Source: Octopus vulgaris (lineage: Eukaryota). From it: a stretch of 64,000 nt of DNA. A program made the translations under genes and the position numbers. The stretch is from contig OX597823.1 of NCBI GenBank assembly GCA_951406725.2, forward strand, positions 76,198,001 through 76,262,000, written 5' to 3'. The notes beneath the pieces are model-generated. The model did not search any database. It was not told the DNA's origin and saw only the letters and a list, made by a program, of their open reading frames with translations. Positions 20,051 through 52,784 of this stretch are shown here, in pieces. Numbering within the stretch: position 1 is the stretch's first letter; each line of letters opens with the position of its first letter.

Positions 20051-20419
20051 GGATCTTTTCTTTTTGAAAGCCAGATTTTCCTAGTTAACTAAACAATTTG
20101 AAACTTCGTATACTGGTAGAATGTGTCAAAAAAAAAACATAATTGTAAACCAAAATGAAAACGGAATTGTAATTTCTAAGTTTAACGTTGTTTAAAAATT
20201 CGAATTTTAACCAATGATATTCTTTCTTTCGGCCTCATGTTATTTACTGCTTCTCAAAATATTGTTACTGTGACGTAAACAGCTATTTTGTGACGTAGTT
20301 AACGTAAACATGTAAATAGCTAACTAAAATGTAAACATCTCCGCTTATCAAAACTTCGTGGAGTATATATAAAATTTGTGTAGATCCTAAATAGCTACAC
20401 ACACATGTATACAAACATA

Positions 20420-20470
<51 letters not shown>

Positions 20471-20666
20471 CTATACACACATATTCTAATGCATATGCAT
20501 ATATGTGTATATATTTATAATGTGTGTGTATTATAGATGCATACATTATATATATAAAAGATGTTTACATACAATATATATATATGTTATATACATCTAC
20601 ATATATTTTATGTATGAATATATAAGTACCACAGAATTTGAATCAAACTGTTTTGATCCATACATA

Positions 20667-20702
<36 letters not shown>

Positions 20703-21159
20703 AACACTACCATCCATGAGACATCCTAACATAATCAATGCTACTACTACTATCATCATCATTATCATCATCATCCACTGCCGCCACCACCACCACCACC
20801 TCTACAAAAACACCAACACTATAATTGCTGCCATCATATACATCCACTGTCACCACTACCACCACTGCCATGATAACCACATCTACCACAGTTGTTTGCT
20901 TACTGCTTACCCACTCACAAAATAGCTATCTACGTCACATTAACACTATGCAGCTAATAATTTCAAATGAAAACAGACAATATGATTGGTTAAAATTCGC
21001 AGATTTAAACTACGTTTAAACCTATAAAATATATTTTTGTCAAAAAAACTAGTTGAAATTATTGTTTTCTTTTGACACATTCTACCAGTATACGAAGTTT
21101 CAAATTATTTAGTTAACTAGAAAAATCTGAAAAATCTGGCTTTCAAAAAGAAAAGATCC
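20051..21159. mobile_element. 1.1-kb MITE forming the left arm of E1
   Basis: Internal inverted TIR copy ending ...CTGGCTTTCAAAAAGAAAAGATCC at 21159. Confidence 0.85.
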
Positions 21160-21286
21160 GGGTTTGGGTTTTAAGGTTAGGGTTTTAGGGTTAGGGTTTT
21201 AGAGCTAGGTTTTATGGTTAGGGTTTTAGAGTTAGGGTTAGGTTTAGGGTTTTAGGGTTAGGGTTGGGATTTAGGATTAGAGTTAC
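21160..21286 (+). repeat. Degenerate interstitial telomere-like (TTAGGG/TTTTAGGG)n tract
   Basis: Directly visible. Confidence 0.85.
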
Positions 21287-21753
21287 GGAAACAAGCGAGA
21301 AATAAAGAAATTGGAGGTGGAGGGGTAGGAGGCAAAATTTTTTTCCGAAAATAGTTGCTGAAATCAAGAAATTGCCGAAGAAAGACTTTCACTTTTTTAT
21401 GAGCGGCTATCGAAAACGCTGGGGTTTTAATATGACAAAAGAAAATACAAAAATGGTGGGCTTTTATGCACATATGTACTAATGGATATCATATATATAC
21501 GTACAAAATGAAACTTGAGATTTCGAAAGAAATTGTGATGTGTGCCACTAGTTTCCTTTTCACATCAAATTCCAATATAATCTGAATATATACATTCTGA
21601 AAAGTATTTGTAGCAAATTTCATTAAAAAATACCCAAGTTATGAGGAAACAAAGTCAACTCATGTGAATTTCCCGAAACCCCTCTTCCTAACCACAGAAT
21701 CTTTTTAAATATCAAATTCCTATGTAAGCGGAATATACACAATCTAAAACATA

Positions 21754-22265
21754 CCGTAAATCCTCAAGTATAATTCGCATTATTTTCCCAAAATTTAAAG
21801 GTCAAAATCCCTAATGCGTACTATATATGAGGTTAAAAATGGAAATTATTTTCTAAGCAATGTCCAAGTCTCTATTTGCTATCAGGCAATGTTTATTCAG
21901 AGGCATTTTGTGATGTCGAGCTCGAAAATACCCTAAGCTAAGCCTGAAAGCAATGAAGTCATAAAAGAATCATCCATAACTTGCAATAAGCAACATTTAT
22001 TAAACGTTATTACTGTTATTTCTTTATTTTCTGCAAACAAAATGCACAAAAAAGCTACACGTTTACATTATGTTATATATACAATAATAATAAAGGATGT
22101 TACCGTATACATTTTTAGAAACCAAGGACGTTATATACACCTCCTTGACTGAAGTTAGAGAAGGGGTGCGTATTATACACAAGGTTTAGGTTTTCCAGAG
22201 GTACAGCCCCCTAAAAATCCCCTGCGTATTATACTCAAGGGGAGACTATACTCGAGGATTAACGG
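21754..22265. mobile_element. Tc1/mariner-superfamily (pogo-like) MITE
   Basis: TIRs CCGTAAATCCTCAAGTATA / TATACTCGAGGATTAACGG, TA on both sides. Confidence 0.75.
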
Positions 22266-22744
22266 TATTTTTTGAAAATTTCATTAAAAAAATTTACATT
22301 TTTCTGGAAGTTATGAGGCAACAAAGTCGGTCGGGTAGGGGCACACATGTATAGGTAAACCGACATTTGCATTATTTTACAATAATCATTTCAAATCCTG
22401 CTCGGCTGGTTTTTGTCTTATCTTTCAGGGCCCAATAGAATGAGTTAATCGTAATAAAACAGAGTTGTAAACACCCCTATACCTATCCATTCAAATGCTA
22501 ACGTCAGTACAGTTGGTCAAGGAAAACCGGTCTTTTTACTTTTATTGGAATTGATATTGTATTTATTTAAGATGCCAAAGGAGTTCTGTGTTTTTGTTTT
22601 TATGAAGACGCTTCATGAATAATCTAATCTTCTCACTCCTTCGGTCATTGTTTTACTAAGATAAAAATAGTATGATGACTTATAAAATATTTAGAGGAAT
22701 ATTAGGTTTTACAGGCCAGATGTTTAAAAAATATTGGAGTAGCT

Positions 22745-22858
22745 GATTCCGGGTTCAGTCCCACTGTCTGGCACCTTGGGCAAGTGTCTTCTACTATAAC
22801 CTCGGGACAACCAAAGCCTTGTGAGTGGATTTGGTAGACGGAAACTGAAAGAAGCCCG

Positions 22859-22920
<62 letters not shown>

Positions 22921-23110
22921 GTGTGTGTTTGTGTGTCTGTGTTTGTCCCCCTAGCATTGCTTGGCAACCGATGCTGGTGTATTTATGTCCCCGTTACTTA
23001 GCGGTTTGGCAAAAGAGACCGATAGAATAAGTACAGGGCTTACAAAAAGAATAAGTCCCGGGGTCGAGTTGCTTGATTAAAGGCGATGCTCCAGCATGGC
23101 CGCGGTCAAG
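22745..23110 (+). mobile_element. SINE family A, 5'-truncated
   Basis: Match to 123-535. Confidence 0.8.
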
Positions 23111-23489
23111 AGTAACATTAAAAGTAAAATATGTTTTATATGACACATTAGGGTTAGGGTTAGTGTCCGAAGGTTGAAAGTGTTTAGTTACAAAAAATAT
23201 ATTTCTCGATCTGCCGTTGAAAGGGTAAAGATCCCTTATATTATTTATTTAAACACTTTACAAACTAGAAGGGTTATGGGTCAAGAGGAAAATACATCAA
23301 TCAAATGTTGGGAAGGCCATCGGTTGAATAAAACAACATTGTTCCTCAACAGAACAATAAGGCTCTATAGTTAGGGGGAAATTTACCCATTCAGTTTCAA
23401 AACTCAGGTGGGGCCAAAAGAGGTCTCTACACATACATACGTATACACACACACATACATACATACATATATCCAGACAACTTCAGCTT

Positions 23490-23527
<38 letters not shown>

Positions 23528-24601
23528 TACCGCTTGGATCGCTTTCAATGCCACTACGTCCCGTCCGATTCGCTCCAAAATTTACAGGGACATGTAGAAA
23601 TAGGTGACAAAGCTCGTGGGCTACCTCAGAAATCCCTATCTTAAAAGGTGTGGTTGCTAGGGGGCATCTTCCTCACTTACGCTATTTCCTCCAGTACCCT
23701 CTCACTCCCCTTCAAATATAACTTTGATATTTCCACTACCGTTATTTAAAGTATCTGTCACTCTCGCTATTTCCTCTCATATTCGCTCACTCTGTTTCTT
23801 ACCTTCCCATTACATCGGCGTTATTTTACGTATCTGTCTGTCACCAACAACACACGAGCATGAGAACAAATATTATGAACCAGATATTCTTGCGTTCATT
23901 TATATGTATGTGTGTGTCTTCTATATATAAATATGTATATATAATGTATGTGTGTGTGTGTTCTATATATAAATATGTATATATAATGTATGTGTGCGTG
24001 TGTGTGTGTTCAATATATAAATATGTATATTTAATGTATGTGTGTGTGTGTTCTATATATAAATATGTATATATAATGTATATATACAAAGTGTATATAT
24101 CTGTATTTATGTATATTAAACTTTTTCATACTTTTTCATAGTTATATATATATTAAAACAAATTATAAATATAATTTAATAATTTTTATTTTCAATTTAA
24201 TTTAAATTTTTAAATTTTATATTTTCTATATTTTCTATATTTTATTTGTTTTTAATGTTTTTGTTTTTGTTTTTTCACTGTTTGATTTGCATAAAAATTC
24301 CATTTTTCACTTTTATGATTATACCCAGAGTGCTCTAATCGAATATGAACTGTCTTCCCATTGGCGGACGTTTGTCTTTTTTATTTTTGAAACAAACGCA
24401 TTGCCTCTTTCGTTTTAAAACAATAAAACAATACTACCTTAATACATTGCTCCAACAAACAAAACATCACCCACTCTCATTCTTTTATGTATCTGAGAAT
24501 GTGTGTCTGTCTGTCTGTGTGTTTCCCTAAAACTTGAGAACTACACAACCAATTTCATTCAAATTTTACACATGACTTACTTAGAGTATAAGGAGTGTGT
24601 T

Positions 24602-24945
24602 GAGCTGGGCTCTGGGCGCCATTGGGCTCACTGTCCACGGCTACGAGACCACAGTGAGCGCTATGGCGACCAGAGCTCGCTCTGGGCGCCATTGGGCTCA
24701 CTGTCCACGGCTACGACACCACAGTGAGCGTTATGGCAACCAGAGCTCGCTCTAGGCGCCATTGGGCTCACTGTCCACGGCTACGACACCACAGTGAGCG
24801 CTTTGGCGACCAGAGCTCGCTCTGGGCGCCATTGGGCTCACTGTCCACGGCTACGACACAACAGTGAGTGCTATGGCGACCAGAGCTCGCTCTGGGCGCC
24901 ATTGGGCTCACTGTCGGCGGCTACGACACCACAGTGAGCGCTATG
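24602..24945. repeat. 70-bp GC-rich hairpin minisatellite, ~5 units
   Basis: Period 70 (CAGAGCTCGC at 24671, 24741, 24811, 24881). Confidence 0.95.
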
Positions 24946-25312
24946 TCTGTCTCCTACGATTTAGATTCCTAACTGCTCCCACATTTTGTGGTGCAGTTTA
25001 ACCAAAACCGGGTATCTTATAGTCGTGATTCATATCGAGCCCTTCTGGGTATTAGCACGCGTCTACGATGAGTAAACGATTTTAAAAAAAATTTACCATC
25101 AGTTTTTCCATTTTAATGCATTTTTTCTCTATTATATAAGGAAATAACTCTCTAAAAATGTCTACGATGAGTCAATGATTTTTTTAAAAATTACCATCAT
25201 TTTTTATTCCATTTTTAATGCATTTTTTTGCTATTTTTTGCTATAACTCTCTAAAAATGCTTATATAGTTATTTCACTTACAAACCCGAGCAACGCCGGG
25301 TGATACTGCTAG
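24944..25312 (+). mobile_element. Non-autonomous Helitron (3' portion)
   Basis: Hairpin CCCGAGCAACGCCGGG then CTAG|T terminus; inverted copy of 32074-32471. Confidence 0.85.
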
Positions 25313-25549
25313 TTAAATATAAAATAACAATAATATACCGATGATTAAGTAATGTACAAAATAATAAATAAATCGTATATATCATGAATTGAGAAAAGGT
25401 GTTTTTTTTTCTAATTTATATATATATATAAATTTATCAATATCAATTTAGCAAAAAAATTCAAGAAAAATTCAAGAAAAATTTTTCGCAACCAGCGGTC
25501 AAGTGAGAAAGAAGAAATAGTCACAGACTATATAATATATTCAACAATA

Positions 25550-26065
25550 GTATTAAGGAATATATATATATTCAGTCAAACTAATGCACCTGCTTGTTAT
25601 TCCTGCACCTGTCTTCGTCTTTTGTTGTTTTCTGTAAATATATCCTTTTATATATCTGTGCTGCAAGATTCTTGATGTGAAACCGTGCGTTGAAACAGAT
25701 GTTGTATTTCGCTCTTTTTGCCACATAAACAGACGCACTATATAATTCCCTTTTCAATCATTTATTACTGTTCTTATTCTAATTTATGTTTATCGTCCGG
25801 AAATCTTTCGTCACACCTCTGTGAACTCTTCAGCGACACTTTCCGTCTTCATGTGTACTCTTGCTCCGCTTTTATACATATACACACATACGCGAGTAAA
25901 TATACGGGTAAAACCCTTGTGGTATGATATATAAAGCTCGTATAAAGTCTTACTCAAAGAAGGTGCATTTCACACCTTGAATTGGTGATAATGATTACAC
26001 AACATCTCACCAATGAACAAGTGTAAAAATGTGTCGGAACAATTGTAATGTTTATAGATAATGTC
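25550..26065 (-). mobile_element. Penelope-type terminal remnant with hammerhead-like core
   Basis: Minus strand CTGAAGA-GTTCAC-AGAGGT-GTGAC-GAAA at 25806-25833; (TA)n flank. Confidence 0.45.
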
Positions 26066-26096
<31 letters not shown>

Positions 26097-26487
26097 TGTA
26101 TGTATGTGTGTATGTGTGTATGTATATACTTACATATATATGTATATACATATGCATATATGGGTACAGGACGTCACAGAAGGTAAACAACATGAAATAC
26201 GAAATACGAAAATATGGAATGCGAACTTTTTTGCGAACAGCGAAAAACAATATTATCGATAATGCCCGAAATTGCGTTTGACTCCTCTTGCTGATAACTG
26301 ATGAAGAATTTATGACCTTGTGTGTTTTCTGTTCGCCTGTGCATTTCGTATGTGTTCGTTTATTTATTTACTATACGTTTATTTTTAATTGTATATATAT
26401 AGATATGATATATTTTCCGTTTGTTGTCTTTTTATTTAATCCTGAAGATATTATTTATGTAACGCACGCACTCATTAATCTTTTACC

Positions 26488-26550
<63 letters not shown>

Positions 26551-26718
26551 GGTTCAAATTTACAGAAAACAAACGACGAAGACAGGTGAAAGAACAACAA
26601 GCAGAGTTTGAAGGTTTTTTAGTTATAGAAATCGACCCCAGGACTTACTCTTTGGAACCCTAGCACTTATTCTATCGGTGTCTTTTTCTAAAACGCTAAG
26701 CTACGGGGACGTGTATAT

Positions 26719-26799
<81 letters not shown>

Positions 26800-28059
26800 C
26801 GTAGGAGTGACTGTGTGACAAGAAGTTTGCTGCCTGGTCACTAGGTCAAATAGATTTGGAAGATGGAAACTGAAAAAAGCCCGTCGTATATACGTGTTTG
26901 TGGGCCGGAGGGGGCTAGCTTCGTGCTTGTCCCAGACAACCGCTTGTTGACTTCCTTTCCATCCCCGCAACTTAGAAGTTCGACGAAATTAACCCATAGA
27001 ATATGTCGAATGACTGAGACAAGTAAATGTTTTTTTAGATATATCGTAGTAATATCCAATGTAGTTGTGGTTTACGACCAGTCAGGACGTTACCATTGGT
27101 TTCACACTTTTTATACTCTTAGCAATATAGACGACTCCCACTACTAAGAACGTAAAAGGCGCGAAAGCAATGGTGACTCCTTGACAGGCCATACCAGCCA
27201 CATAGTTTCGGGTTCATTCACACTGCGTGGCACCTTAGAACCTAGGGTTGGATTCAAAATTTCTACCAGGACCCCTGAGAGTAAATCAGCCGAAATTTTG
27301 TGGTAGCAACAAACAAGATGAGGACAAATATCCGTCCAATGTAAAAAATGTAAATATTGTACAGAATTCCTCATCTCTAAAATATAGAACAATTTATGAT
27401 TGTTTCAAAAATTCCATGTTGACTTAATCTTGCATCGTGTTTTTAAACGACTCTACAATTAATGATGTAGTCATATCCGTTGTACAGATACCCCGTTCAT
27501 AGAAATGATCCCTCGCAACTCTCTACAAAAAATAATATGCTGAAGTGTTTGTCTACCGCTTAAATATAGGACATTAATCAATGTTTATAGTGGACGGCAC
27601 AGCGGTCACGTTTATAAACATGATTGAAGATAAGTCAAAATGAATTTGTAGAAATAATTGTAAACTATGAAACAAAAATAATAACGCAAGCTCCACTCTT
27701 CAGTGTTTATCATTTTATACTCAACAATAATTTGTGGGTTACCAGCTTATTGGGGGTCTTTTCCCCATTTAGTCATTGTCCGTAGAAGCACTTCTTCCCT
27801 AGGCAAGCGCCTGGATTATTTTATCCCAAGTCTCCTGTAATATACCTCCCTGCGCGCACGACCGAGTGTGGGTGTTTTCAACTGCTTTGTGAGTTCAAAT
27901 CACGCCTAAGTTAACTTCATCTTCATATTCTCAAAATAACAATACAGAGAAGATTCGTGGAATCTAGTAGTATCTAGCAGTATCTATTTCGGATCCCTAT
28001 ATTCTGAGTTCAAATCCCACCTACTATCAGCGGAAAAATAAAAGGGTCCTTCGTAGAAG

Positions 28060-28450
28060 AAAATCCGTTGGTAAAGGTTCGAAGCACTCTAAAATATGGA
28101 CGTCAGCGGCACATTTCATAAAGTATGCACGTCAGCGGCACATATCGTAAAGTATGGACGTCAGGATCTCTTTAATATCGATCCTTTCTCAGCCAGACAT
28201 AATCTGCACTTCCTGCTGCTATTGAAGTACGCTTTACATTTCTCTAGAATCCTCCACTTTATGTTATTCTTGGTGATGCTGTCTTTCAACGACCATACGT
28301 GCTTGGCCAGGGTTGTGGAATTACATCTCTCCTAGATGCTGAAGGACTTGTGGTTGTTATAGCAGGGTCTGAAGGGGCCTTCAGTTGCTCCAATGTACTT
28401 TCGCACGCTTGGTTGTCTATTTAATCCTATTGCTGTTACCTTTACCTCGT
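28060..28450 (-). pseudogene. Penelope-like element GIY-YIG endonuclease remnant
   Basis: Manual translation: RKYIGATEGPFRPCYNNHKS, STTLAKHVWSLKD...IKWRILEKCKAY..SSRKCRLCLAEK. Confidence 0.8.
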
Positions 28451-28464
28451 ATGGAATGGAAGCA

Positions 28465-28628
28465 CGGCGTCGGTTACGACGACGAGGGTTCCGGTTGATC
28501 CGAATCAACGGAACAGCCTGCTCGTGAAATTAACGTGTAAGTGGCTGAGCACTCCACAGACACGTGTACCCTTAACGTAGTTCTCGGGGATATTCAGCGT
28601 GACACAGAGAGTGACAAGGCCGGCCCTT
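28465..28628 (-). mobile_element. SINE family C 3' tail
   Basis: Reverse complement of tails at 30820-30955, 59570-59680 and 60290-60430. Confidence 0.7.
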
Positions 28629-28649
28629 GGTGGTGGCTGTTGTGGTGGC

Positions 28650-28650
28650 G

Positions 28651-28713
<63 letters not shown>

Positions 28714-28796
28714 CTGGTAGCGGCGACAATGTTAATGTCGGGTCGTTGATGTTATGGGTGGTGATGGCGGTGGTAGCATCCGCAGCGGTGTGGGTA

Positions 28797-28873
<77 letters not shown>

Positions 28874-29190
28874 GATCTATCTATTTCTCTATCTATCTCT
28901 CTATCTATCTCTCTATCTATATATCTATCTTCTTAAGACTTGAGAGACAGACAGATTAAATAACATAAGCATTGACCCACGGTCTAGAGAAACTGACCAT
29001 AGTGATTATTAGCGGGAATAGCTTAGATTGGAAGTCTGTCCATGGATGGAATTTACCATGGTAGAATATACCGTGATGGAAATTACCTAAGGTGAAATTT
29101 ACCTGGTGGAATTTTCCGTGGTAGAATTTACCTAGAACTCATACATACATACATACATACATACACACACACACATACATACATACACAC

Positions 29191-29223
<33 letters not shown>

Positions 29224-29512
29224 TACATACATGCATACATACAAACATACATACATATATACATACAAACATACATACATACATACACACATACATATAT
29301 ACATACATACACACATGCACACACACGCATACATACATACACACACACATACATATACACAAACACATACACACACACATACATACATACATACATACAT
29401 ACATACATACATACACACATACATACATACATACATACATACATACATACATACATACAAACAAACAAACAAACAAACAAACAAACAAACAAACAAACAA
29501 ACAAACAAACAA
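28650..29512. repeat. (AGT)n,(ATCT)n,(ACAT)n,(ACAA)n microsatellites plus ~15-bp GGTGGAATTTACC-type repeats at 29047-29135
   Basis: Directly visible. Confidence 0.9.
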
Positions 29513-29704
29513 AAAAGAAGGAAAATTCTTGAAAGTATCGAAAAGAGACCCCTTGAACTTAAATTGAGCCGCCTGAAAGAGGAGTCAATGAGAAGCTGTC
29601 GGAGTCAAACTTCGACATTAGAAGCAGGTAACTGAAAAAATAATTAACAATAATAACATAGGCGCATGAGTGGCTGTGTGGTAAGTAGATTGCTTACCAA
29701 CCAC

Positions 29705-29851
29705 ATGATCACCACCATCCCCTGCCGGAGCATCGTGGAGCTTTTAGGTGCTTTCGCTCAATAAACACTCACAACGCCCGGTCTGGGAATCGAAACCGCG
29801 ACCCTACGACCGCGAGTCCGCTGCCCTAACCACTGGGCCATTGCGCCTCCA
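29705..29851 (-). mobile_element. tRNA-derived SINE (family C-related head)
   Basis: Minus strand GGAGGCGCAATGGCCCAGTGGTTAGGG...GGTTTCGATTCCC. Confidence 0.7.
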
Positions 29852-30019
29852 CGTTCACTACATACTGATGGATGGTAGATGATTGACAAAAAATCAAAAT
29901 ATCCAATGCTATTCGTATTAGGCTGGTGCATAATTATTGCGGCTTTTTTTTTTTCAATAAATTTTAGTCAACAAAATATTTAAACAAAACGCTAAGCAGA
30001 AATAGAAGTTGATGATGAA

Positions 30020-30810
30020 GGCAGCGAGCTGGCAGAAACGTTAGCATGCCAGGCGAAATGCTTGGCGGAATTTCGTCTGCCGTTATGTTCTGAGTTCAAG
30101 TTCCGCCGAGGTCGACTTTGCCTTTCATCCTTTCGGGGTCGATAAATTAAGTACCAGTTACGCACTGGGGTCGATGTAATCGACTTAATCTCCTTGTTTG
30201 TCCTCTCTGTGTTTAGTTCCTTGTAGGTAGTAAAGAAATAGGTATTTCGTCTGCCCTTATGTTCTGAGTTCAAATTCCGCCAAGGTCGACTTTGCCTTTC
30301 ATCCTTTTGAGGGTAGATTAAATAAGTACCAGTTACGCACTGAGGTTGATATAATCGACTTAATCTGTTTGTTTATCCTTATTTGTCCTCTCTGTGTTTA
30401 GCCCCTTGTGGGTAGTAAAGAAATAGGTATTTCGTCTGCCGCTACGTTCTGAGTTCATCTTCCGCCGAGGTCGACTTTGCCTTTCATCCTTTCGGGGTCG
30501 ATCAAATAAGTACCAGTTACGCACAGGGGTCGATGTAATCGACCTAATCCCTTTGTCTGTCCCTGTTTGTCCCCCTCTATGTTTAGTCCCATGTGGGCAA
30601 TAAAGAAATCAGAAACGTTAGCACGCTGAGCGAAATGCTTAGCGGTATTTTGTCTGTCTATGGGTTCTCAGTTCAAATTCCGCCAAGGTCTATTTTGCCT
30701 TTCATCCTTTCGGGGTCGATAACTTAAGTACCAGTTGTGTAATGGGGTCGATCTAATCGACTGGCCCCCTCCCACAAAATTTCGGGCTTTGTACCTCGAG
30801 TAGAAAATAT
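30020..30810 (+). mobile_element. Tandem array of four family B SINE units
   Basis: Core (G)ACTTTGCCTTTCATCCTTT-like motif repeated four times about 185-220 bp apart. Confidence 0.85.
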
Positions 30811-30959
30811 TCTATGTCGTACTGAATTTCGCTAAGAACTATGTTAAGAGTACACGGGTCTGTGGAGTACTAAGCCACTTGCATGTTAATTTCACGAGCA
30901 GGCTGTTCCGTTGATCGGATCAACTGGCACCCTATTCGTCATAACCGATGGAATGCTAG

Positions 30960-31011
<52 letters not shown>

Positions 31012-32073
31012 ATCGTAAAAATGTCTGGTCTGAAAAGAAGACGTTTAAACCGGATGTATCCTAGGAACAAGAAATCTGATAGGGGCATCGTCTCTGCCAA
31101 CAGCATCAATGGCGATATTGCTGAGGGTATGGTAGTAAACTGAGCCCACATCATCATCTTTAACATGTCTCACAGCTAGAACCTTTTACTAAATATTTTA
31201 TCCAATCATTTATCTCCAGAATGGCAGCTTCTACATGGAATCACATTCTCATCAGACATTAATTTACAAAAGTTGAAAAAAGACATCATCTACATTCACA
31301 TTAACAGCTTAGGAAAGCCTGCAGATGTTCTCTTGCTCGCACTTTATATTAATACAAATAAGAATTTCTAACAAAGGTTCATAGCCAAAAATTTTATAAG
31401 AGGAAATAATGTCAACTATATAATGTCAACCACTCCTTATCTAGTGTTTTATTTCATTGCCAACAAAAAAAGAGAAATGTGAAGTGTGTTGACAATGCTA
31501 ACTAACCCTTTCATGACTTAAATTCTGATAGGTAAACTGTTTCATTAAATCACTAGTGCCAGTTTAGCATACAGTAAACGTGGCCATTTACAATTTAGTA
31601 TGCTATCTGTTGCCAATTCTAGACCATAGCTCTAACCCTAACATAAACCATAACAAGGCATAGTCTACATAGTTACAAGCAGATAGACACTCTACTGACC
31701 TTCTCACCTTTATCTCATAATTTTGTTGATCCAGACACCTGATTAATAATTAAAGAAAGTAGCTATTTTACTAAGACTGTTCAAATTGATTATGTGTATT
31801 TCATTGGGAACATGACTATAAAAGAATTTAGCATCAAATTTGATTTCAACTTACATTTTCCACAGCTATTCTAACAACAGTGTAACAATACTTCTGTAAC
31901 CTCTCAGAGGAAACATGACTCCTCCATCACTCCTCTCCACCCTTCCTTTATGGTTTGAGAACAATTCTATAATTGTTATAAACTGGATTGGAACTTACTT
32001 TCTTTCTGCTCGCATCCATTCTCCATTTAATGCTGCTTGGTTTGCATCTTTTAGAGAGATAGATTACATATAA

Positions 32074-40337: not shown

Positions 40338-40344
40338 AAAATTG

Positions 40345-41441: not shown

Positions 41442-41838
41442 TATATACACTGGCGAAAATATATTTAAGACAGACGATAAAAGTTCTATTTCTTACAAAA
41501 TATTTTGTTACTAACACCATACAAATTATTTTTATCTTCTTCACGTTATGCAAAATTTATTTCGCTTTCGAATGATGCAGACAATAACCATTTTTATACA
41601 ACTTGAAGAATTCTAATGCTAAATATAATTTTAATGGAGATAACCTGCAGTATATAGTACAACATTTTTGTCTCCGTATATGAGCTAAGTATTAATAAAA
41701 TGTGGTATACGATAAAAATTTCGGATATTTGTCTTAAAACATTCAGACAAGAAAATTCAGATGTAGCACATGAGGTATTATTCCATACGAATATCCACAT
41801 ATTTATATTAAGAATTTCATGATAAAAATATAGAAATA

Positions 41839-42405
41839 TTGGGTTGTCCGGAAAGTTCTTGCAGATTTATAGTAGCTTATCTTTCGACTTATTTTAGAAC
41901 ATGTTTGAGTCCATAAAAAAGGATTTGACTACACCTCCATTTGGAGCACAGTTTAATCTATCTTTTCGTGGAAGAAGGTTTATGTTCCAATAACCTGTGT
42001 TACTTCTGTAACCCTTTAAATTAAAAGATGAGAAAAATTCATTATCGGCATTTGATGCTTTGGGAACCAGACAAAAATTGCTGCAGCTTGGCTGGGGTGA
42101 CTTACCCCACCCTCCATATTCACCAGATATTACTCCTTCGGATTTCCACTTATTCAGGTCTCTGCAGAATAGTCTTAATGGTGAAAATTTCAATTCCTTA
42201 GATGACGTAAAAAGATACCTTGATGAATTATTTGCCTTGAAACCACCCCAATTCTGGGAAGAGGGTATTTTAAAGGTAAATGTAAGATGGAGACGTATTG
42301 TGCAACGAAATGGTTCAGATTTGGTTCATTAAAAATGTAATGGCAAGTATTTAGTGACCATGTACTTTCCTTTAAAAATCGGAACGAACTTTCCGGACAA
42401 CCCAA
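41839..42405 (+). mobile_element. Internally deleted mariner (567 bp) with perfect TIRs
   Basis: TIR TTGGGTTGTCCGGAAAGTTC on both ends, TA TSD, HPPYSPDITPSDFHLF. Confidence 0.9.
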
Positions 42406-42857
42406 TATAAACATGAAAAATAAAAACCTAAATTGAAAGAGGCGATTAAAATTTTTTCCTAACCTGCAGCCGTTTGTTGTACGAAGTATTCGAAATTCAT
42501 CCCTCCTTCCTCAGGGTTCCTTTCTCGAGGTAAAATCCAGCAGAAAGCAGTAAGGCACTACATAGTGAGTATTCAAGTTGTGAAAGTTCAGTATTTGGGT
42601 ATCGGTAAATGGTTTTATTATTACCCATAAGGGGCAAACAAAGAGGGGACGATACAACCTGATGTGGGGTCAGATTCTCGGATGGGGTTACAAAAAAGAT
42701 GAGATTAAAAATTCAAAAATTCACAAAAATTGCAAAAATTATAAAATCGAATGAATAACAGACCGGAAGACATTACAGGTGGAGTGGGGGCGGGTTCAGC
42801 TCGGACCCCACGAGCCCCGCCTCACCACTGATACTTTGGTTTCGTCCTGATTTACAT

Positions 42858-45800
42858 TTATGTGGTGTCATCCATTCGCAACTTCCGTGCTACATCCTTC
42901 CATCGTTCTTCATACACTCTCTTAGTCAGGCATTTTCTCTCCAGCCCTATCTTCCTTTTCAGGTGGAAGATGAAGTAATTCATCAATCCAGGGCCGGATA
43001 TGAACTTGCCTGACCGTATACCTTTCATTCTCGTCTTCCATATCACCTCTTTCGCAATTGCTACCACAACGAGAAAACAATTCTTACCTTCTTTCGCGAG
43101 GAAATCTGGTGGGTCAATTTTTTTAATACACTCAGTCGACAGCTGTACTCTTCGTGTGCTTGACAACAGCTGTTCGGCATAAACCCACACCTCAGACACG
43201 ACCGAACAATGAACAATAGCGTGCGGGACGGTTTCCCTATCCCGCCCGCATCTTGGACACGTCGGACTGTCTTGGCCACCGTGCCTTGCGAGTTTATCCC
43301 GAACAGGTAGAGCTCCTCTGTAGCATTGCCATGCCAGAGACTTCTGGAAGTTGTCCAGTGTCTTCGGCTTGAACGTACGTCGGAACAGACTGGCCAGCTG
43401 ATTATCGTCGAGACCTAGGGTTTCCCCCAAGGTGTCTTCACATTTCGCCTCTACCAACCCTCTATAGAAGAATGTGGTGGAACCCCCACCGCAGGCGTTG
43501 CCCGAGCGACGGAATAGCAGGAGAGCCTTGCGACACTCCGTATACCATGTGCCCAGTTTCGATCTACGATTCAACCAGGTTTCCCATCCACCGAAACTAG
43601 TGAACTTGGGAAACATCAGTTTTGCTAGCGAAGACCACACCCGTTCACCATCCAGGTAGAGCCACAGATGTCTTAACCTCAGCGCATGTTTGCGCATCAT
43701 CAGCCAAGGCATCCCTAGCCCACCCTTTAACGGTTGTTGACAGCAAGTAGAGCGTTTCACAAATGGTTTCCCGCCCTTCCACAAGAAGTAGAAGAGCTGT
43801 CTTTCCAACTTGATCAACCACGAATCAGGGCATGGAACGACGGAAAGGCGGTAGGTGATAACCGATGCGATAAACACATTGGCCACCTCCGCCCTCCCTT
43901 TCAGGGATAGCCACCGCCAAGACCAGGTCTTGGCTACTGCAGCCACCTTGCTCGTTACCTCGCCCCAATTCTTCTCTATTTGGAGGTCTGGACCGAACCA
44001 GACCCCTAGCAGTTTAATCGGACCCTCCGTCCAACGTCCCACGACGCTGTCAGGAGGCATCGACTTGCCTCTCCAGGTGCCGAGTTGCAAGCCGACTGAC
44101 TTTTCGCGATTAACTTTTGCTCCTGTCACCGTCTCGTAATCCTCTATGGCCTTGCCTACTTTACATAGGTGGTCCATTTCGGTTACGATGATGGTGATGT
44201 CATCCGCGTACGCTGACACTGATTTTCCATTACCTGGCTGTCTCGGGATGCCGCTCAGTTTTCGCAGTAATGGCTCAAGAGCCATCACGTACAAAAGCGG
44301 GGAGAGCGGACACCCTTGACGAACCGAGCGTTTGATTTTGAACGGCTTCGACAAGAAGCCGTTCACCCGAACTACCGAGTCGATGTTGTCATAAATTTGG
44401 ATAATCCACCTGAGGAAGCCAAGGCTCAGCCCGAACTGTGCCAGGGCAGATACCAGGTAACGATGGTCGACCCTATCAAAAGCCTTGGATTGGTCTAAAT
44501 GGACCAGTGCCCCACCCTTGCCAGAATCACTATTAAACCCCTCTATAGTGTACCGCATTAGATGGAGATTATCCTGAATGGTTCTGCCCGGAACGGCACA
44601 TGTCTGTGCCTCCCCGATCAGACCATCCGCGACACGCGCCAATCTTTTCGATAACACTTTGGCCAAAATCTTCAACTCTGTGTTTAGCAGAGTGATGGGC
44701 CTGAAATTATCAATGCACTCCCCCTTGCTCGGGTCCTTTCTGACGAGAGTCACCACTCCCCGGCGCACAGATCTGGGTATAAGCCCGTTCTGCTGCCAGT
44801 TCGCATAGACCTACGCCAGTAGGTGCCCGAACAAGTCTGGCATACTCTTATATAACTCATAGGGTAGACCATCCAAACCCGGCGCCTTGCCCGTGCCGCA
44901 GTCCGCCATTGCCTCAACCACCTCCTCAGGCGTGATTGGCCCTTCACAGCCCTCCGCATCTCGCCCCGATAAGCGCGGCAGCCCGTCGAGTAGGTCCGTA
45001 AAGGCCCTCCTCCTATCCAGCCCGCCGCACTCACCGAAAAGCTGAGCGAAGTGCTCCTGAAAGGCCTCACACATCTCCTCGGGTTCGTTTATCAACTCAC
45101 CTTGTTGGTTCTTCAAAGATCGAATCGTGGCATCGTTGCCATTCTGAGCTTCCACCACTCGGGCCCATCTCACGGCGTTGATTCCTTCACATCCCGTATG
45201 ACGGATTCTAGCCCTGACAATGCAGCCCATGTGTTTGGCCTCGAGGTGCTGGTTTAACACCAGTCTTTTGGATGCCACCTGAGCCGCAGAGCCAGTTTTC
45301 ATGGCTTCCTCTAATTCCTTAACTAGAGTAGTTTCCCTTCTAGCCTCTCTAGTCACTACTCCTATGCTATATCTAATAGACTCAAACTTGATGGCTCGTT
45401 TGAGGGCGTACCACCATTTGTTATTAATGATGGCACCAGACAGCGCCCTCTGAATTATAGTCCTAATCCGGTCTCTGTACTCCTTAATTGCCAAAAGGGA
45501 CGTATTAGGTTTCCAGTAACCGGATCCTCTATTTCTAACCTTATCTATGTCAAGCTTACAAGTGACCATTTTATGATCACTGTAGCTGATCGGGTAAAAC
45601 TGTGGACACTTAGCTATTTTACTGTCTACCTTTCTAATTAGAATTCTATCTATGTATGACCTGGAAGATCCGTCGCTGTTTGACCATGTCCACAATGGAG
45701 CGTTCGGAAATTCCAACCTATAAGGATCTGCTAGCTCAAAGCGGCTTAGCAGTTCCAGGAAGCAAGAGTTACCTTTTCTATCTGCATTCGAGCTAACACA

Positions 45801-46250
45801 ATCTACATCCGCTTTGCAAATTGTGTTAAAGTCTCCTAGCACAACTAATGAATGCGAAGTACCGAGAAAGTTTTCTAGTTCACGAAAATAATCACTTTGC
45901 CCTGTATTGGGTGCGTAAATTGCAACCAGTCTGATAACTTTACCGTTACTGAACGTCAAATCCATGACGACCAGCCTACCTTCTGGGTCTGAAAAGATTA
46001 ACTTTTTCTCAAAAACCCGGTTTCTTTTTAATAGGACCAACACCCCACCCCCGCCTGTAGGACTGGCCGGAGAGAAAAAACTCTCGTAGCCGTCAAACAG
46101 CGGGAGTAGACCTCTTGGCCCCTTTAACCGGGTTTCTGTAGCAACAATAACATCCAAATTACGCGACCTGATATCATTAAGGAAGCGACCTTGCTTCCCG
46201 CTTGATCCCAGGCCGCGCACATTTAAACAACCAAAATAAATGTAGTCCAT
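42858..46250 (-). pseudogene. Tx1 ORF2 (APE endonuclease, reverse transcriptase, zinc finger) with one in-frame TAG at 44811-44813
   Basis: LNVRGL, TET, GDFN, IDRI, SDHK; KAPGLDG, RPITLLN, KAFDRV, QGCPLSP, YADD, CPRC..ETVPHAIVHC; both track ORFs share one frame (~1130 aa). Confidence 0.92.
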
Positions 46251-46258
46251 AACTTACC

Positions 46259-47623
46259 TTATATCAGTGGTTCGACTTGTTCGACTGGTTCGCCTTGTTT
46301 TTCGTCGTCTTCTTCGCTTTTATTTTTTTCCTTGGCTCGTGGGGGAGTCCGACGCAGGCCCTCGTATAGGTATGGAGACATGTCCAGTCTCAGAGGGCCC
46401 ACGTCGTGGAAGAATTCGGATTTTATCCGCCTGTAATCCTTCCGGCCTATTTTGTACACAATACAGTCTTTCGTTTTCCTTACTCTCTCCACTTTGGCCA
46501 TGGCTGCCAACACATTGACTAGTCTATTGTTGGTAGCCTTAATGGCCATAAATGAATTGGTTACTTCTTTTCTCTTCTTCTGGTTCTCTTCTTCTTGAGG
46601 GGTGGTTTCTGTTTTCCGTTTTTTTTTTTTGGTAACTTTTGACCACCCCTCCTCTTTTTCTTTTTCTTTTTCTGCACCACTCGATGATTTTTCTACCTCT
46701 TTGGTTTCCTCTGTTTTCTTTTCTGTTTCAGTTTCTTCCTTTTCCGACGGTGCTTCTACCTGCGGTTTAAGTTGATACTCTGCTCTTACGTGTCCCTTTT
46801 TTCCGCAGCCGAAGCACCTCGGCTTTCTTCCTTCTACGAAAACCAACACTCTCTCCTCCTCATCGAGCCTCAGCACCTCTGGTATTTCCTCCAGTGTCTG
46901 GACCTCGGCTTGGATTGCCATTGTGATGCTCTGGCCCTGCCAGAACCCCTCCTCCTCCACTGTAGCTTGGAGGATATTGATTTTGTCCTTCAGGCCTAGC
47001 ATCACTGCCGCCACCAGGCATGTGGCGTCCGCCTCTGGGGGAATATTTCTCATAACTATTTTTGAGGTCCTTCTGCCTCTGTACATGGGTAGAAGGACTA
47101 TGTTCCCTGCTTTTTGCGGTTCGGTAGATAGCCTCTTTGCTATTTCCTCGGTCCTAAACCTCACCTCTACCGTTCCGAACCTTCTTCCTCTGTTTATGTA
47201 TGTTACGTCCTTTCTAATTGCCTTCAGGCACTCCTCTATTTTCTTTTCTTCCACTTTTTGGATACTTTTTGTTGTTGTACTGTATGTTTTATAAATTATC
47301 CTTTTCTTTTCTATCTCTTCTTTTTTTCCTACATCTGCTTTTACTGCTATCTCGTTTCCTTCTTTTTTCAGAAAGACTTCATATTTTTCCAGATTACTGC
47401 TATCTGTATTTATACTTTTTTGTTTACGCCCTGCAACTTCCGCGAACTTCTTCGCTGGGGCCTTTTTTTCTGGCGTTACCGCCGGTTCTTTTTCCGGCGT
47501 CACCGCCGGTGAGCTTTCTTCACCTGAGGCTTGTGAGCTTTCATCACCTGAGATTGGTGAATAAGAGATAGGGAATTCCATTTCGAGCTTTTTCAGTTGG
47601 CATTCACCGCCTTCCGAAGACAT
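46259..47623 (-). CDS. Tx1 ORF1 (zinc knuckle, Lys/Glu-rich)
   Basis: Open frame from ATG at 47623; CFGCGKKGHVRAEY knuckle with last Cys replaced by Tyr; directly upstream of ORF2. Confidence 0.85.
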   Translation of the reverse strand: MSSEGGECQLKKLEMEFPISYSPISGDESSQASGEESSPAVTPEKEPAVTPEKKAPAKKFAEVAGRKQKSINTDSSNLEKYEVFLKKEGNEIAVKADVGKKEEIEKKRIIYKTYSTTTKSIQKVEEKKIEECLKAIRKDVTYINRGRRFGTVEVRFRTEEIAKRLSTEPQKAGNIVLLPMYRGRRTSKIVMRNIPPEADATCLVAAVMLGLKDKINILQATVEEEGFWQGQSITMAIQAEVQTLEEIPEVLRLDEEERVLVFVEGRKPRCFGCGKKGHVRAEYQLKPQVEAPSEKEETETEKKTEETKEVEKSSSGAEKEKEKEEGWSKVTKKKKRKTETTPQEEENQKKRKEVTNSFMAIKATNNRLVNVLAAMAKVERVRKTKDCIVYKIGRKDYRRIKSEFFHDVGPLRLDMSPYLYEGLRRTPPRAKEKNKSEEDDEKQGEPVEQVEPLI

Positions 47624-47896
47624 TTTGGCTTTGCAAGCCGTTTGTAGAAATTTTTTAATGTGTTCCACACACGATGACACACAATAATTCCCCCGCGAGG
47701 GGGGAACTAAGTACGCAGCCTTCGCACGAAGGCCACTAACAGTCTTATAGAAAAGACACCAAAACAACAGTGATTAAGTTAACAAAGTAGCAGTAATTTA
47801 CTAACCAAGCAGGCACTCGTATAAGTATTCAGTCGGTCAAAGTTCAGTTTTTGAGTATCGATGAAAAAGTAACATCTAACAAACAAAGTAACATCG

Positions 47897-48578
47897 TTTT
47901 TGGGTATCGGTAAATGGTTTTATTATTACCCATAAGGGGCAAACAAAGAGGGGACGATACAACCTGATGTGGGGTCAGATTCTCGGATGGGGTTACAAAA
48001 AAGATGAGATTAAAAATTCAAAAATTCACAAAATTGCAAAAATTATAAAATCGAATGAATAACAGACCGGAAGACATTACAGGTGGAGTGGGGGCGGGTT
48101 CAGCTTGGACCCCACGAGCCCCGCCTCACCACTGATACTTTGGTTTCGTCCTAATTTACATTTATGTGGTGTCATCCATTCGCAACTTCCGTGCTACATC
48201 CTTCCATCGTTCTTCATACACTCTCTTAGTCAGGCATTTTCTCTCCAGCCCTATCTTCCTTTTCAGGTGGAAGATGAAGTAATTCATCAACCCAGGGCCG
48301 GATATGAACTTGCCTGACCGTATACCTTTCATTCTCGTCTTCCATATCACCTCTTTCGCAATTGCTACCACAACGAGAAAACAATTCTTACCTTCTTTCG
48401 CGAGGAAATCTGGTGGGTCAATTTCTTTTTCTTTTTCTGCACCACTCGATGGTTTTTCTACCTCTTTGTTTTCCTCTGTTTTCTTTTCTGTTTCAGTTTC
48501 TTCCTTTTCCGACGGTGCTTCTACCTGCGGTTTAGGTTGACACTCTGCTCTTACGTGTCCCTTTTTTCCGCAGCCGAA
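47897..48578 (-). mobile_element. Second Tx1 copy, 5'-truncated with ~3.5-kb internal deletion
   Basis: 47897-48424 is near-identical to 42594-43120; 48422-48578 matches 46657-46813. Confidence 0.92.
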
Positions 48579-48584
48579 ATAAAG

Positions 48585-48748
48585 AAATAAACCGCCACTA
48601 CAATCTTTTCATGTCTTCAATGACATTCGTCAGGTGGATTTTCGATCTCCTAATCTGTTTTAATTTAAATTAAAACAGATTAGGAGATCGAAAATCCACC
48701 TGACGAATGTCATTGAAGACATGAAAAGATTGTAGTGGCGGTTTATTT
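48585..48748. repeat. Perfect 164-bp palindrome (no spacer)
   Basis: 82-bp arms, centre 48666/48667. Confidence 0.95.
48696..48738 (+). ncRNA. Minimal type I hammerhead ribozyme-like motif (Penelope-type)
   Basis: CCAC-CTGACGA-ATGTC(ATTGAA)GACAT-GAAA-AGATT-GTA-GTGG; stem III weak. Confidence 0.6.
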
Positions 48749-48920
48749 ATTTATATTAAAAAAATTTTTATGTATTGATTAAGTCTTTCCTTGTTTGTTT
48801 TGCAAAATAGTGGTTTTGTCTCGAATTAATATTATATAATATTTTACTATAAAATTGGATTTAATCCTAAATCTGGTTTTTTTCCCTGTAATTTTGGATT
48901 TATTCCCTAATATTTATTAT

Positions 48921-48987
<67 letters not shown>

Positions 48988-49418
48988 CATGTATGTATGT
49001 ATGTATGTATGTATGTATGTATGTATGTATGTATGTATGTGTGTGTGTATGTATATACTTACATATATATGTATATACATATGCATATATGGGTACAGGA
49101 CGTCACAGAAGGTAAACAACAGGAAATACGAAATACGAAAATATGGAATACGAACTTTTTTGCGAACAGCGAAAGAAACAATATTATCGATAATGCCCGA
49201 AATTGCGTTTGACTCCTCTTTCTGGTAACTGATGAAGAATTTGTGACCTTGTGTGTTTTCTGTTCGCCTGTGCATTTAGTATGTGTTCGTTTGTTTATTT
49301 ACAATACGTTTATTTTTAATTATATATATATAGATATGTCATATTTTCCGTTTGTTGTCTTTTTATTTAATCCTGAAGATATTATTTATGTAACGCACGC
49401 ACTCATTAATCTTTTACC

Positions 49419-49449
<31 letters not shown>

Positions 49450-49676
49450 ATGTGTGCGTGTGTGTGTGTGTGAGTGTGCGCGCGCGTGTGTGTGTGTAGT
49501 TCAAATTTACAGAAAACAAACGACGAAGACAGGTGAAAGAACAACAAGCAGAGTTTGAAGGTTTTTTAGTTATAGAAATCGACCCCAGGACTTACTCTTT
49601 GGAACCCTTTGGAACTTATCTATCTTTGGAACTTATTCTATCGGTTTCTTCTTCCAAAACGCTAAGCTACGGGGAC

Positions 49677-49737
<61 letters not shown>

Positions 49738-50210
49738 CGTAGGAGTGACTGTGTGACAAGAAGTTTGCTGCCTGGTCACTAGGTCAAATAGATTTGGACG
49801 ATGGAAACTGAAAAAAGCCCGTCGTATATACGTGTTTGTGGGCCGGAGGGGGCTAGCTTCGTGCTTGTCCCAGACAACCGCTTGTTGCCTTCCTTTCCAT
49901 CCCCGCAACTTAGAAGTTCGACGAAATTAACCGATAGAATATGTCGAATGACTGAGACAAGTAAATGTTTTTTAGATATATCGTAGTAATATCTAATGTA
50001 GTTGTGGTTTACGACCAGTCAGGACGTTACCATTGGTTTCACACTTTTTATACTCTTAGCAATATAGACGACTCCCACTACTAAGAACGTAAAAGGCGCG
50101 AAAGCAATGGTGACTCCTTGACAGGCCATACCAGCCACATAGTTTCGGGTTCATTCACACTGCGTGGCACCTTAGAACCTAGGGTTGGATTCAAAATTCT
50201 ACCAGGACAC

Positions 50211-50242
50211 CTGATGAAGGCTGGAGAGTAAATCAGCCGAAA
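50211..50242 (+). ncRNA. Hammerhead-like core
   Basis: CTGATGA-A-GGCTG(GAGAGTAAAT)CAGCC-GAAA; stems I and III not evident. Confidence 0.45.
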
Positions 50243-50842
50243 TTTTGTGGTAGCAACAAACAAGATGAGGACAAATATCCGTCCAATGTAAAAAATGTAA
50301 ATATTGTACAGAATTCCTCATCTCTAAAATATAGAACAATTTATGATTGTTTCAAAAAGTCCATGTTGACTTAATCTTGCATTGTGTTTTTAAACGACTC
50401 CACAATTAATGATGTAGTCATATCCGTTGTACAGATACCCTGTTCATAGAAATGATCCCTCGCAACTCTCTACAAAAAATAATATGCTGAAGTGTTTGTC
50501 TACCGCCTAAATACAGGACATTAATCAATGTTTATAGTGGACGGCACAGCGGTCACGTTTATAAACATGATTGAAGATAAGTCAAAATGAATTTGTAGAA
50601 ATAATTGTAAACTATGAAACAAAAATAATAACGCAAACTCCACTTTTCAGTGCTTATTACTTCTGTAACCTCTCAGAGGAAACATGACTCCTCCTTCACT
50701 CCTCTCTACCCTTCATTTATGGTTTGAGAATAATTCTATAATTGTTATAAACTGGAATGGAACTTACTCTCATTCTGCTCACATCCATTCACCATTTAAT
50801 GCTACTTGCTTTGCATCTTTTAGAGAGATAGATTAGATATAA

Positions 50843-51240
50843 CTAGCAGTATCGCCCGGCGTTGCTCGGGTTTGTAAGGGAAATAACTATATAAGCACTC
50901 TTAGAGAGTTATAGCCAAAAAATAGCAAAAAAATGCATTAAAAATGGAAAAAATGATGGTAATTTTTTTTTTAAATCGTTGACTCATCGTAGACATTTTT
51001 AGAGAATTACTTCCCTTATATAATAGCAAACAAAAATGCATTAAAATGGAAAAAAATGATGGTAAATTTTTTTTTAAATCGTAGACTCATCGTTGACGCA
51101 CGCTAATACCCAGAAGGGCTCGATATGAATCAAGACTATAAGATACCCGGTTTTGGTTAAACTGCACCGCAAAATGTGGGAGTAGTTAGGAATCTAAATC
51201 GTAGGAGACAGACACACAACCTCCCTTTTATATATAAAGA
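50843..51240 (-). mobile_element. Non-autonomous Helitron (E2 counterpart of 32074-32471)
   Basis: Same termini and same flanks. Confidence 0.9.
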
Positions 51241-52784
51241 TAAACTCAAAGAGCAACTAGAAAGTGAAAGTAGTATCTAACTTAGGATGTCTAATAGATA
51301 GTGCTGGCAATGGTGTTGGAGGTGGTAGATGTGGTTATCATGGTAGTGGTGGTGTTGGTGGTGTAGTGGTGACAGTGGATGTGTATGATGGCAGCAATTA
51401 TAGTGTTGGTGATTTTGTAGAGGTGGTGGTGGTGGCGGCGGCAGTGGATGATAATGATAATGGTGATGATAGTAGTAGTAGCATTGATTATGTTAGGATA
51501 TCTCATGGATGGTAGTGTTGAAGACATTGCAGAGTGTAGTGGTGGTGAAATTGGTGATTTTGAATATGATACTGGTATTGATCTTGGGGTTGTGGTTGCA
51601 GAAGATGGTTGTGGTGGTGGCATTGGAGGTTGTAGTAATGGTTGTAGTGGTAGTTGTGAAGATGATTCTGATATTGATAGTCTTTGCATTGAGGTGGTGG
51701 CAGAGTCAGAGTAAATATTAAGAGCCCAGTTAACACAAGATTCTTAAATTTCGGAGATCATAAGATAGAGAGCAAGAAGTTAAAAGTTCCAATACTGGCC
51801 CAATACCTACACCCCAGATTCTTCAACTATTTTATAAGAAAGGGGTTAATGGCAGGATAGGGATTCAGCTTTAAAATAAATTGTATTACAAAAAATACAT
51901 AAATAAATTACTGCTCCAATGATGTAATTTTAGTATGTGTGTGTGTGTAAGCAATGCAAACAATGGAAAATAATTTAAACACTCATTTTCTGATGTCTAA
52001 GGATGGATATTTATGCGTATGAATCTTTTTCTTTTTATTTTCTTTCAAATATAATTCTAGGGAACTGAAAAAGCTGTGTACGGTGCCAAGCGAATTTAGT
52101 TATTTACGATGAGCGGATGTTTACGTTACAAACGAATCTCTAGGTCTGTTTACATGTTTACGTTAACTACGTCACAAAATAGCTGTTTACGTCACAGTAA
52201 CAATATTTTGAGAGGTAGTAAATAATATGAGGTCGAAAGAAAGAATACCATTGGTTAAAATTCGAATTATTAAACAACGTTAAACTTAGAAATTACAATT
52301 CCGTTTTCATTTTGGTTTACAATTGTTTTCTTTTCACACATTCTACCAGTATACGAAGTTTCAAATTGTTTAGTTAACTAGGAAAATCTGGCCTTCAAAC
52401 TGAAAAGATCCGGCCATTTTAATGCCGTTAAAGAAACCTGTATACATGAGCTAAAGAAAATTTTCCATGTGATACGCTAGATCTACTAAAAATAATTGTT
52501 TCCAGCATAGGCACAGAAAAAAAGGGGCAAGCAGGCAATATCGTCTTCACGCTGGGCAAAATGTTTAAAATTCCGCCAAGGTCGATTTCACCGTTCATCT
52601 TTCAGGGGTCGATAGCATAAGTAGCTGTTGAACACTGGGATCGCTGTAATTGATTTCCTCCACTCTCCCGAAATTGCTGGCCTTGTACCAAAATGTGAAA
52701 TCAATATAGTCACAAGCTGAGGTAAAGCGCTAGTCGAGTACATCGACCCCAATATTTCAATGCTATTATATTTTATCCAAAGCG

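Follow-up and report, generated by a model that had tools for sequence, protein, structure and literature searches.

We analysed a 64,000-nucleotide stretch of the Octopus vulgaris genome (hereafter the window; contig OX597823.1, positions 76,198,001 to 76,262,000, lying on C10 of the 2.8-Gb genome G000 and containing no N), which harbours two giant elements, E1 and E2. Both belong to a family of giant non-autonomous elements that, with a probability of roughly 60%, originated as a composite of two MITEs (miniature inverted-repeat transposable elements) and was moved by a transposase supplied in trans, likely of the Merlin type. The family is real, well supported and unusual, and is surprising in its size, copy number and anatomy. 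It has the features of a composite transposon that could be tested; its membership of Merlin is unproven.

An earlier, sequence-only reading of the window had described E1 and E2 as two separately inserted transposons with long terminal inverted repeats (TIRs). Re-reading the window recovered the same termini, the same two different 8-bp target site duplications (TSDs) and the same gap of 920 bp between the elements. The TSDs abut GGATC...GATCC termini directly on the outer side, and the TIRs are 269 bp long with ~94% identity between left and right. The boundaries and arms are as follows, with the strand where one applies.

20043 to 20050: left TSD of E1, TAAGTGTG
20051 to 33661, plus strand: E1, a 13,611-bp non-autonomous putative composite of the older sublineage, without the two common deletions
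20051 to 21159, plus strand: left arm of E1, a whole copy, with internal deletions, of the free 1.6-kb MITE (maps to L039), with outer TIR-A at 20051 to 20319 and inner TIR-B at 20915 to 21159
32553 to 33661, minus strand: right arm of E1, a second, inverted MITE copy with other deletions and without TIR-B; right outer TIR at 33394 to 33661
33662 to 33669: right TSD of E1, TAAGTGTG
34574 to 34581: left TSD of E2, GGCCATTT
34582 to 52411, plus strand: E2, a 17,830-bp putative composite of the sublineage carrying both common deletions
34582 to 35492, plus strand: left arm of E2, its TIR-B cut by a 2-kb deletion whose junction occurs at 13 places including E2
51322 to 52411, minus strand: right arm of E2, an inverted MITE derivative
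52412 to 52419: right TSD of E2, GGCCATTT

A free 1.6-kb MITE with its own 8-bp TSDs (copies L039, L181 and L183) accounts for both arms, so that the giant elements are bounded by two copies of an independently mobile element. The left arm of E1 corresponds to positions 1 to 292, 504 to 845 and 1144 to 1605 of L039; because this mapping reaches the inner TIR, a third TIR that was absent from the earlier reading, the left arm is a whole MITE. The right arm, read in the opposite direction from 33661 to 32553, corresponds to positions 1 to 413, 834 to 1156 and 1148 to 1321 and has lost the inner TIR. Segments 293 to 413 and 846 to 1143 of the MITE are found in the right arm only and segment 504 to 833 in the left arm only, and each arm has free relatives (L129 carries the first left-arm deletion, and L187 resembles the right arm). 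With both arms being deletion derivatives of the free MITE, and the left arm of E1 a whole one, a Tn10-like composite is the most likely origin: two inverted MITEs whose outer ends would be used jointly, an origin that we regard as highly probable. Tn10 has the composite layout of two inverted elements. The tips that had been read as fixed left/right diagnostic differences are not fixed, since a right-type tip occurs on 5 of 20 left arms; the tips have since been exchanged between arms.

The same arms bear on a different origin, in which a single MITE captured DNA by gap repair or template switching and the second arm is its inverted duplicate. Pack-TIR and Pack-MULE elements are likewise non-autonomous TIR elements with captured DNA, and the published accounts available describe multicopy ones with distinct TSDs that arise via template switching (PMC8277862). 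The swapped tips would suit such an origin, as would the failure to find a donor with the cargo between two free MITEs. However, each arm has MITE sequence missing from the other, free-standing relatives exist for either deletion pattern, and the left arm terminates in its own inner TIR. The published inserts are also small, with medians of 224 bp (animal Pack-TIRs, PMC8277862) and 305 bp and a parent locus that can be found, whereas the insert here spans tens of kilobases, its parent was not found and the arms are whole MITEs. No parent copy unlinked to a TIR element was seen among the matches of one cargo piece, as all 21 long matches lie beside an arm. Capture by a single MITE is thus improbable, and a two-MITE origin remains preferred.

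Genome-wide, exact matches of the two terminal patterns numbered 62 and 52 (reversed controls 0), and the TIR tip, with up to 2 mismatches allowed, was found 810 times (control 0). Two junctions that mark the long form matched 73 left arms and 66 right arms. Pairing of these arms, after E1's left arm and 17 extra left termini had been added by hand, yielded 42 elements of 5.1 to 65.6 kb (median 17.5 kb, total ~0.86 Mb), 4 of which rely on the extras. Ends were read for 37 long pairs besides E1 and E2. Among the 32 with readable termini, 22 have a perfect 8-bp TSD (one of them in a TA run and uninformative), 2 an 8-bp TSD with one mismatch and 2 a perfect 9-bp TSD; the 65.6- and 52.2-kb copies both have perfect 8-bp TSDs. 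Most other long pairs therefore keep the 8-bp TSD, as the sequence-only reading had anticipated, and in the long copies the whole unit has moved with one TSD at its outer ends. In 2 of 20 long copies the element splits a dispersed repeat of which unbroken versions, with a single copy of the target, occur at 56 and 13 other sites; the other 18, E1 and E2 included, are uninformative in this comparison. The proposal of a trans-mobilised, multi-copy macro-transposon is supported, and nested transposable elements (TEs) were duplicated along with the copies. We also fetched 26 small pairs of 0.1 to 1.8 kb.

A rival explanation takes the copies for segmental duplications or assembly artefacts with common MITEs at their bounds by chance. 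The TIR superfamily is indeed very abundant: an older related subfamily, the GGATCT-type MITE, has 29,106 termini, or ~1 per 96 kb. A 100-N run also lies within 5 fully fetched copies, whose lengths are uncertain for that reason. Yet the copies lie on many chromosomes, each with a separate TSD and flanks unrelated to those of the others; homology stops exactly at GG/CC, two copies split repeats cleanly, and E1 and E2 are free of N and 1.9% divergent. This explanation is already largely refuted, and we give it hardly any weight beside transposition of whole units. Other copies, like E1 and E2, also lie within or next to family members. One locus (G000 C3:65582174-65626253, L203 to L207) is a 44-kb tail-to-tail inverted pair of giant copies with the left arms outward and without a TSD, possibly a second-order composite or a rearrangement.

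Alignment of E1 with E2 bore out the four colinear blocks noted earlier and refined their boundaries: 20051-20993/34582-35492 (93% identity), 23022-24945/35495-37418 (a 70-bp array runs on to 38150 in E2), 26067-27710/48996-50657 and 31889-33661/50658-52411. The divergence of 1.9% between the E1 and E2 right arms compares with a family median of 2.1%, with one truncated outlier. Two deletion junctions are present in E2 and absent from E1; counting E2, either one occurs at 13 places in the copies fetched. E1 clusters weakly with copy C6_103.6. Because the sublineages differ, neither element is the parent of the other, and we rejected either as a local copy of its neighbour. Together with the different TSDs, this upholds the claim that they are separate insertions. 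Amplification would date to ~3 Myr ago if the rate that PMC13282606 quotes for octopus, 0.0036 per Myr, applies.

The cargo consists of other TEs and intergenic-looking DNA. Nineteen long copies yielded 145 non-redundant open reading frames (ORFs) of 85 aa or more. Pfam matches were obtained for 20 of these, all to TE domains: reverse transcriptase (RT), endonuclease, Helitron Rep/PIF1, Gypsy-type pol with an adjacent DUF7041, and Tc1/mariner. Pfam returned no Merlin, MULE or hAT domain among these ORFs, and no host gene was found inside the copies at this ORF length, which short host exons would escape. The description of the elements as transposase-less thus holds for a cognate transposase, with the correction that E2 contains Tc1/mariner transposase fragments as nested passengers. 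The features inside the cargo are as follows.

23168 to 23243, minus strand: TIR remnant of a related older GGATCT-type MITE, inside E1
24609 to 24945 (4.8 copies) in E1 and 37082 to 38150 (15.3 copies) in E2: 70-bp GC-rich minisatellite
24944 to 25322, plus strand: dispersed repeat, which we take to be Helitron-like, with an inverted second copy at 32064 to 32445; also in unrelated loci
28155 to 28460, minus strand: Penelope-like fragment, presumably of the GIY-YIG type, its junction common to 6 copies
30018 to 30800: array of short interspersed nuclear elements in E1, junction common to 3 copies
39028 to 42410: co-amplified passengers in E2, junctions common to 9 to 11 copies, comprising a decayed Tc1-like element (about 39028 to 40338) and two mariner-like elements (about 40340 to 41400 and about 41845 to 42410)
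42591 to 48578, minus strand: L1/Tx1-like long interspersed nuclear element (LINE) in E2 with a duplicated piece at 47896 to 48578; ORF1 at 46259 to 47773, endonuclease at 44811 to 46253 and RT at 42858 to 44810

Two nested TIR pairs considered in E1 were rejected: 20702-20889/32553-32748 is what the two arms have in common, and 24944-25322/32064-32445 is the dispersed repeat. The 70-bp minisatellite is partly palindromic and often lies at deletion breakpoints; its copy number is ~5 in E1, 15 in E2 and higher still in other elements.

About 9 copies have an RTE-like ORF and 3 have a pair of Helitron ORFs, in addition to the shared Tc1/mariner junctions seen in E2 and the shared Penelope-like one seen in E1. 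The nested TEs were copied onward as co-amplified passengers. Colinear sharing between copies at different loci extends to 18 to 19 kb with the L1/Tx1-like LINE excluded and tandem repeats unmasked; between two copies on different chromosomes (C15_24.9 and C4_29.9), 18.0 of the 18.3 kb of C15_24.9 are colinear. At least 18 kb is therefore the demonstrated lower bound of the moved unit. The LINE of E2 was rejected as co-amplified cargo because its junctions differ between copies; it is probably a separate insertion at a recurrent target site, which suggests that this retroelement is site-specific and has its target within the giant element. In one copy this LINE has a frame of at least 1050 aa. 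Another copy (C4_74.3, L024 to L025) contains an inserted Gypsy-type long terminal repeat retrotransposon with RT, RNase H and integrase domains. As described earlier, multi-kilobase blocks were duplicated with TEs in them; the cargo consists of repeats and intergenic-looking DNA and not of genes, and some of its length was probably gained after insertion.

As for the mobiliser, the accessible description of Merlin gives TIRs of 24 to 462 bp beginning with 5'-GG and an 8-bp, sometimes 9-bp, TSD (PMC8101967). The giant family has GGATC ends, a 269-bp TIR and an 8(9)-bp TSD. The symmetrised TSDs of 25 long copies follow approximately S-A-A-W-W-T-T-S, with A2/T7 in 32/50 (p ~7e-6 vs 0.33) and the reverse in 6/50. 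The same profile was obtained from 11 TSDs of elements enclosing a Merlin in this genome (A2/T7 14/22; reverse 2/22). Among the other superfamilies with 8-bp TSDs (hAT, P and Zisupton), hAT and P elements have CA/TA-type ends, and hobo-type hATs a T2/A7 target profile; the ends here are GG and the T2/A7 profile is depleted (6/50). A PF12762 profile search gave at least 150 Merlin matches in the genome, with many frames near 300 aa. Related TIRs occur 9 times in Merlin loci against 2.4 expected and 0 times in MULE loci against 1.0 expected; the enrichment near Merlin loci fits shared targets and proves nothing. Merlin is the likeliest mobiliser of the giant family, and probably the actual one; since an autonomous partner bearing such ends did not turn up, it is favoured and unproven. 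The fit to Merlin noted in the sequence-only reading holds for the GG ends and the TSD length, and the target profile agrees with it; the autonomous partner that it proposed to look for, with an IS1595 or MULE domain and GGATC ends, was not found at the loci covered (58 of 150 for Merlin, 30 of 66 for MULE).

A Mutator/Foldback-type (MuDR) transposase, or another one that makes 8-bp TSDs, might instead have moved the same composite family. Long TIRs and G-starting ends also suit MuDR, the TSD of which is mostly 9 bp. The genome has 66 MULE matches, no Merlin partner was found, and Foldback elements frame the Drosophila Ising TE, according to the portion of PMC6431247 available. Against this, the great majority of the TSDs measure 8 bp and 9-bp ones are confined to 2 of the 32 long pairs and 1 of the 26 small ones, none of the 30 MULE loci has these TIRs within 1.5-kb flanks, and the target profile is that of the local Merlins. 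We consider such an enzyme unlikely, somewhat less so than capture by a single MITE, and retain Merlin.

Under the preferred reading, a transposase supplied in trans, likely Merlin, would have taken the outer ends of two neighbouring MITEs together with the DNA between them, in what was likely a single event. The composite unit would then have multiplied by repeated cut-and-paste with gap repair, and its lineages would have lost different internal segments and gained new transposons that were copied onward as passengers. The donor locus, two MITEs flanking native DNA, may have been excised since. Donor candidates on C3, C26 and C6 are deleted or rearranged family members, and the odd matches of 27400 to 27900 that were fetched are derivatives of the family.

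Several observations weigh against this reading. No arm-free donor locus was found with 21300 to 21900, the one cargo piece fully resolved in the search: all 21 long matches lie within ~2 kb of a left arm. Pairing left 24 of the 66 right arms and 36 of the 74 left arms without a partner, a recognisable terminus is missing in 5 of the 37 long pairs read, 6 of the 32 readable pairs have no clear TSD, and orthologous empty sites were not seen for E1 and E2. With respect to Merlin, no GGATCT-ended element enclosing a transposase was found in the 58 of 150 PF12762 loci covered or, with 1.5-kb flanks only, in the 30 of 66 MULE loci (PF10551), and two longer pairs of the older subfamily (L229 and L230) contain no Merlin. 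The A2/T7 profile is weak in small MITEs (15/30; reverse 10/30, two duplicates included), and the comparison within this genome is with Merlins alone. With respect to size, the 65-kb copy shares 33% with other copies, which argues against a literal 66-kb jump, and one scanned stretch of its unique interior is mostly minisatellite. The L1/Tx1-like LINE lies at nearly the same site (window 42540 to 42600) with different junctions in ~5 copies, and part of the element length, the LINE of E2 included, was probably gained after insertion.

Nine Merlin-associated loci (L049, L060, L061, L070, L169, L174, L175, L215 and L223) were rejected as partners; their GGATCT TIRs are neighbouring MITEs or fragments and never enclose the transposase. 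One 9,051-bp Merlin (G000 C16:25033338-25042388, L161+L044+L162) has ~350-bp TIRs and the TSD GAAACTTT. Its family (relatives L046 and L043), which codes for a 308-aa transposase that looks intact and bears a CR1-like LINE common to three copies, is a second, autonomous, cargo-carrying TIR family. It too was rejected as partner of the giants, with which it has only independently inserted LINE and Penelope families in common. GG-ended elements pile up on one another's target sites: at L049 (2929 to 3168) a tiny Merlin-type MITE lies between two outward-facing GGATCT TIRs, and at L180 (945 to 3679) the ends of one Merlin closely enclose another. L215 contains a 319-aa Merlin-like ORF (1789 to 2748, minus strand) with altered putative catalytic residues, for which TIRs were not found; this ORF is possibly domesticated.

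Set beside known systems, what appears new is a naturally amplified, repeat-carrying composite family at such size and copy number, and what is known is the composite principle. Because a composite of two MITEs follows that principle, a wholly undescribed system, for which the elements had been named a candidate, is not supported. A long segment moved by the outer ends of two TIR elements is also seen in maize Ac/Ds macrotransposons and, with Foldback ends, in the Ising TE, both of which are reportedly laboratory-stock events with host genes on board. Unlike these (for Ising, see the portion of PMC6431247 cited above), the giant family is natural, has at least 42 copies, is bounded by MITEs, carries repeats and has diversified by deletion and accretion. 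In accessible accounts of bacterial composite transposons and MITE-bounded TIME-COMPs, two inverted small elements likewise bound a passenger and are mobilised in trans; here the host is eukaryotic, no selectable gene was found and the passengers are other TEs. Merlins (related to IS1595/IS1016) and their MITEs agree with the giant family in GG termini, 8-9-bp TSD, TIR range and target profile; the giant family differs in having no transposase or TIR-matched partner and in its length of 5 to 66 kb, against 1.3 to 9 kb for local Merlins. Fungal Starships are likewise large mobile units bearing hitch-hiking TEs, as the available text of PMC13004909 describes. They have their own tyrosine-recombinase-like gene and are low-copy, whereas the giant family has long TIRs and no enzyme. 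Eukaryotic TEs are generally under 10 kb according to PMC10175614. A published annotation of Octopus vulgaris repeats (PMC13282606) reports 18 Merlin families, of which 2 are recently active, and composite or giant TIR elements are not mentioned in the text seen. No amplified giant MITE-pair or giant Merlin family was described for an animal in the literature covered, with most subscription papers and Repbase outside its scope.

Two gene-less MITEs acting as a composite would thus have given rise to a lasting, amplifying animal family, with dozens of TSD-bounded copies, in which a jump moves 18 kb or more. Such units would likely be broken up by automated annotation into the TEs that they carry, which would inflate apparent TE activity (a single old Tc1 insertion shows up as 11 copies), and be misread as segmental duplications. 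The failure to find a host gene among the passengers limits the biological impact. Should Merlin be the mobiliser, the family bears on the cargo capacity of a little-studied transposase. It is conceivable, although we would put this forward as a tentative and rather doubtful extension, that intact units of 30 to more than 60 kb were moved time and again in the germ line of an animal by a Merlin-type DDE transposase via a two-MITE composite, that the family is a vehicle multiplying dead retro- and DNA transposons, and that in MITE-rich animal genomes segmental duplications may routinely stem from MITE-pair composites that go unannotated.

Elsewhere in the window, a 173-aa frame without a Pfam match lies at 12860 to 13381 on the plus strand, and we take it to resemble a decayed DNA-transposon protein. 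Some copies of the older GGATCT-type MITE hold telomere-like repeats.

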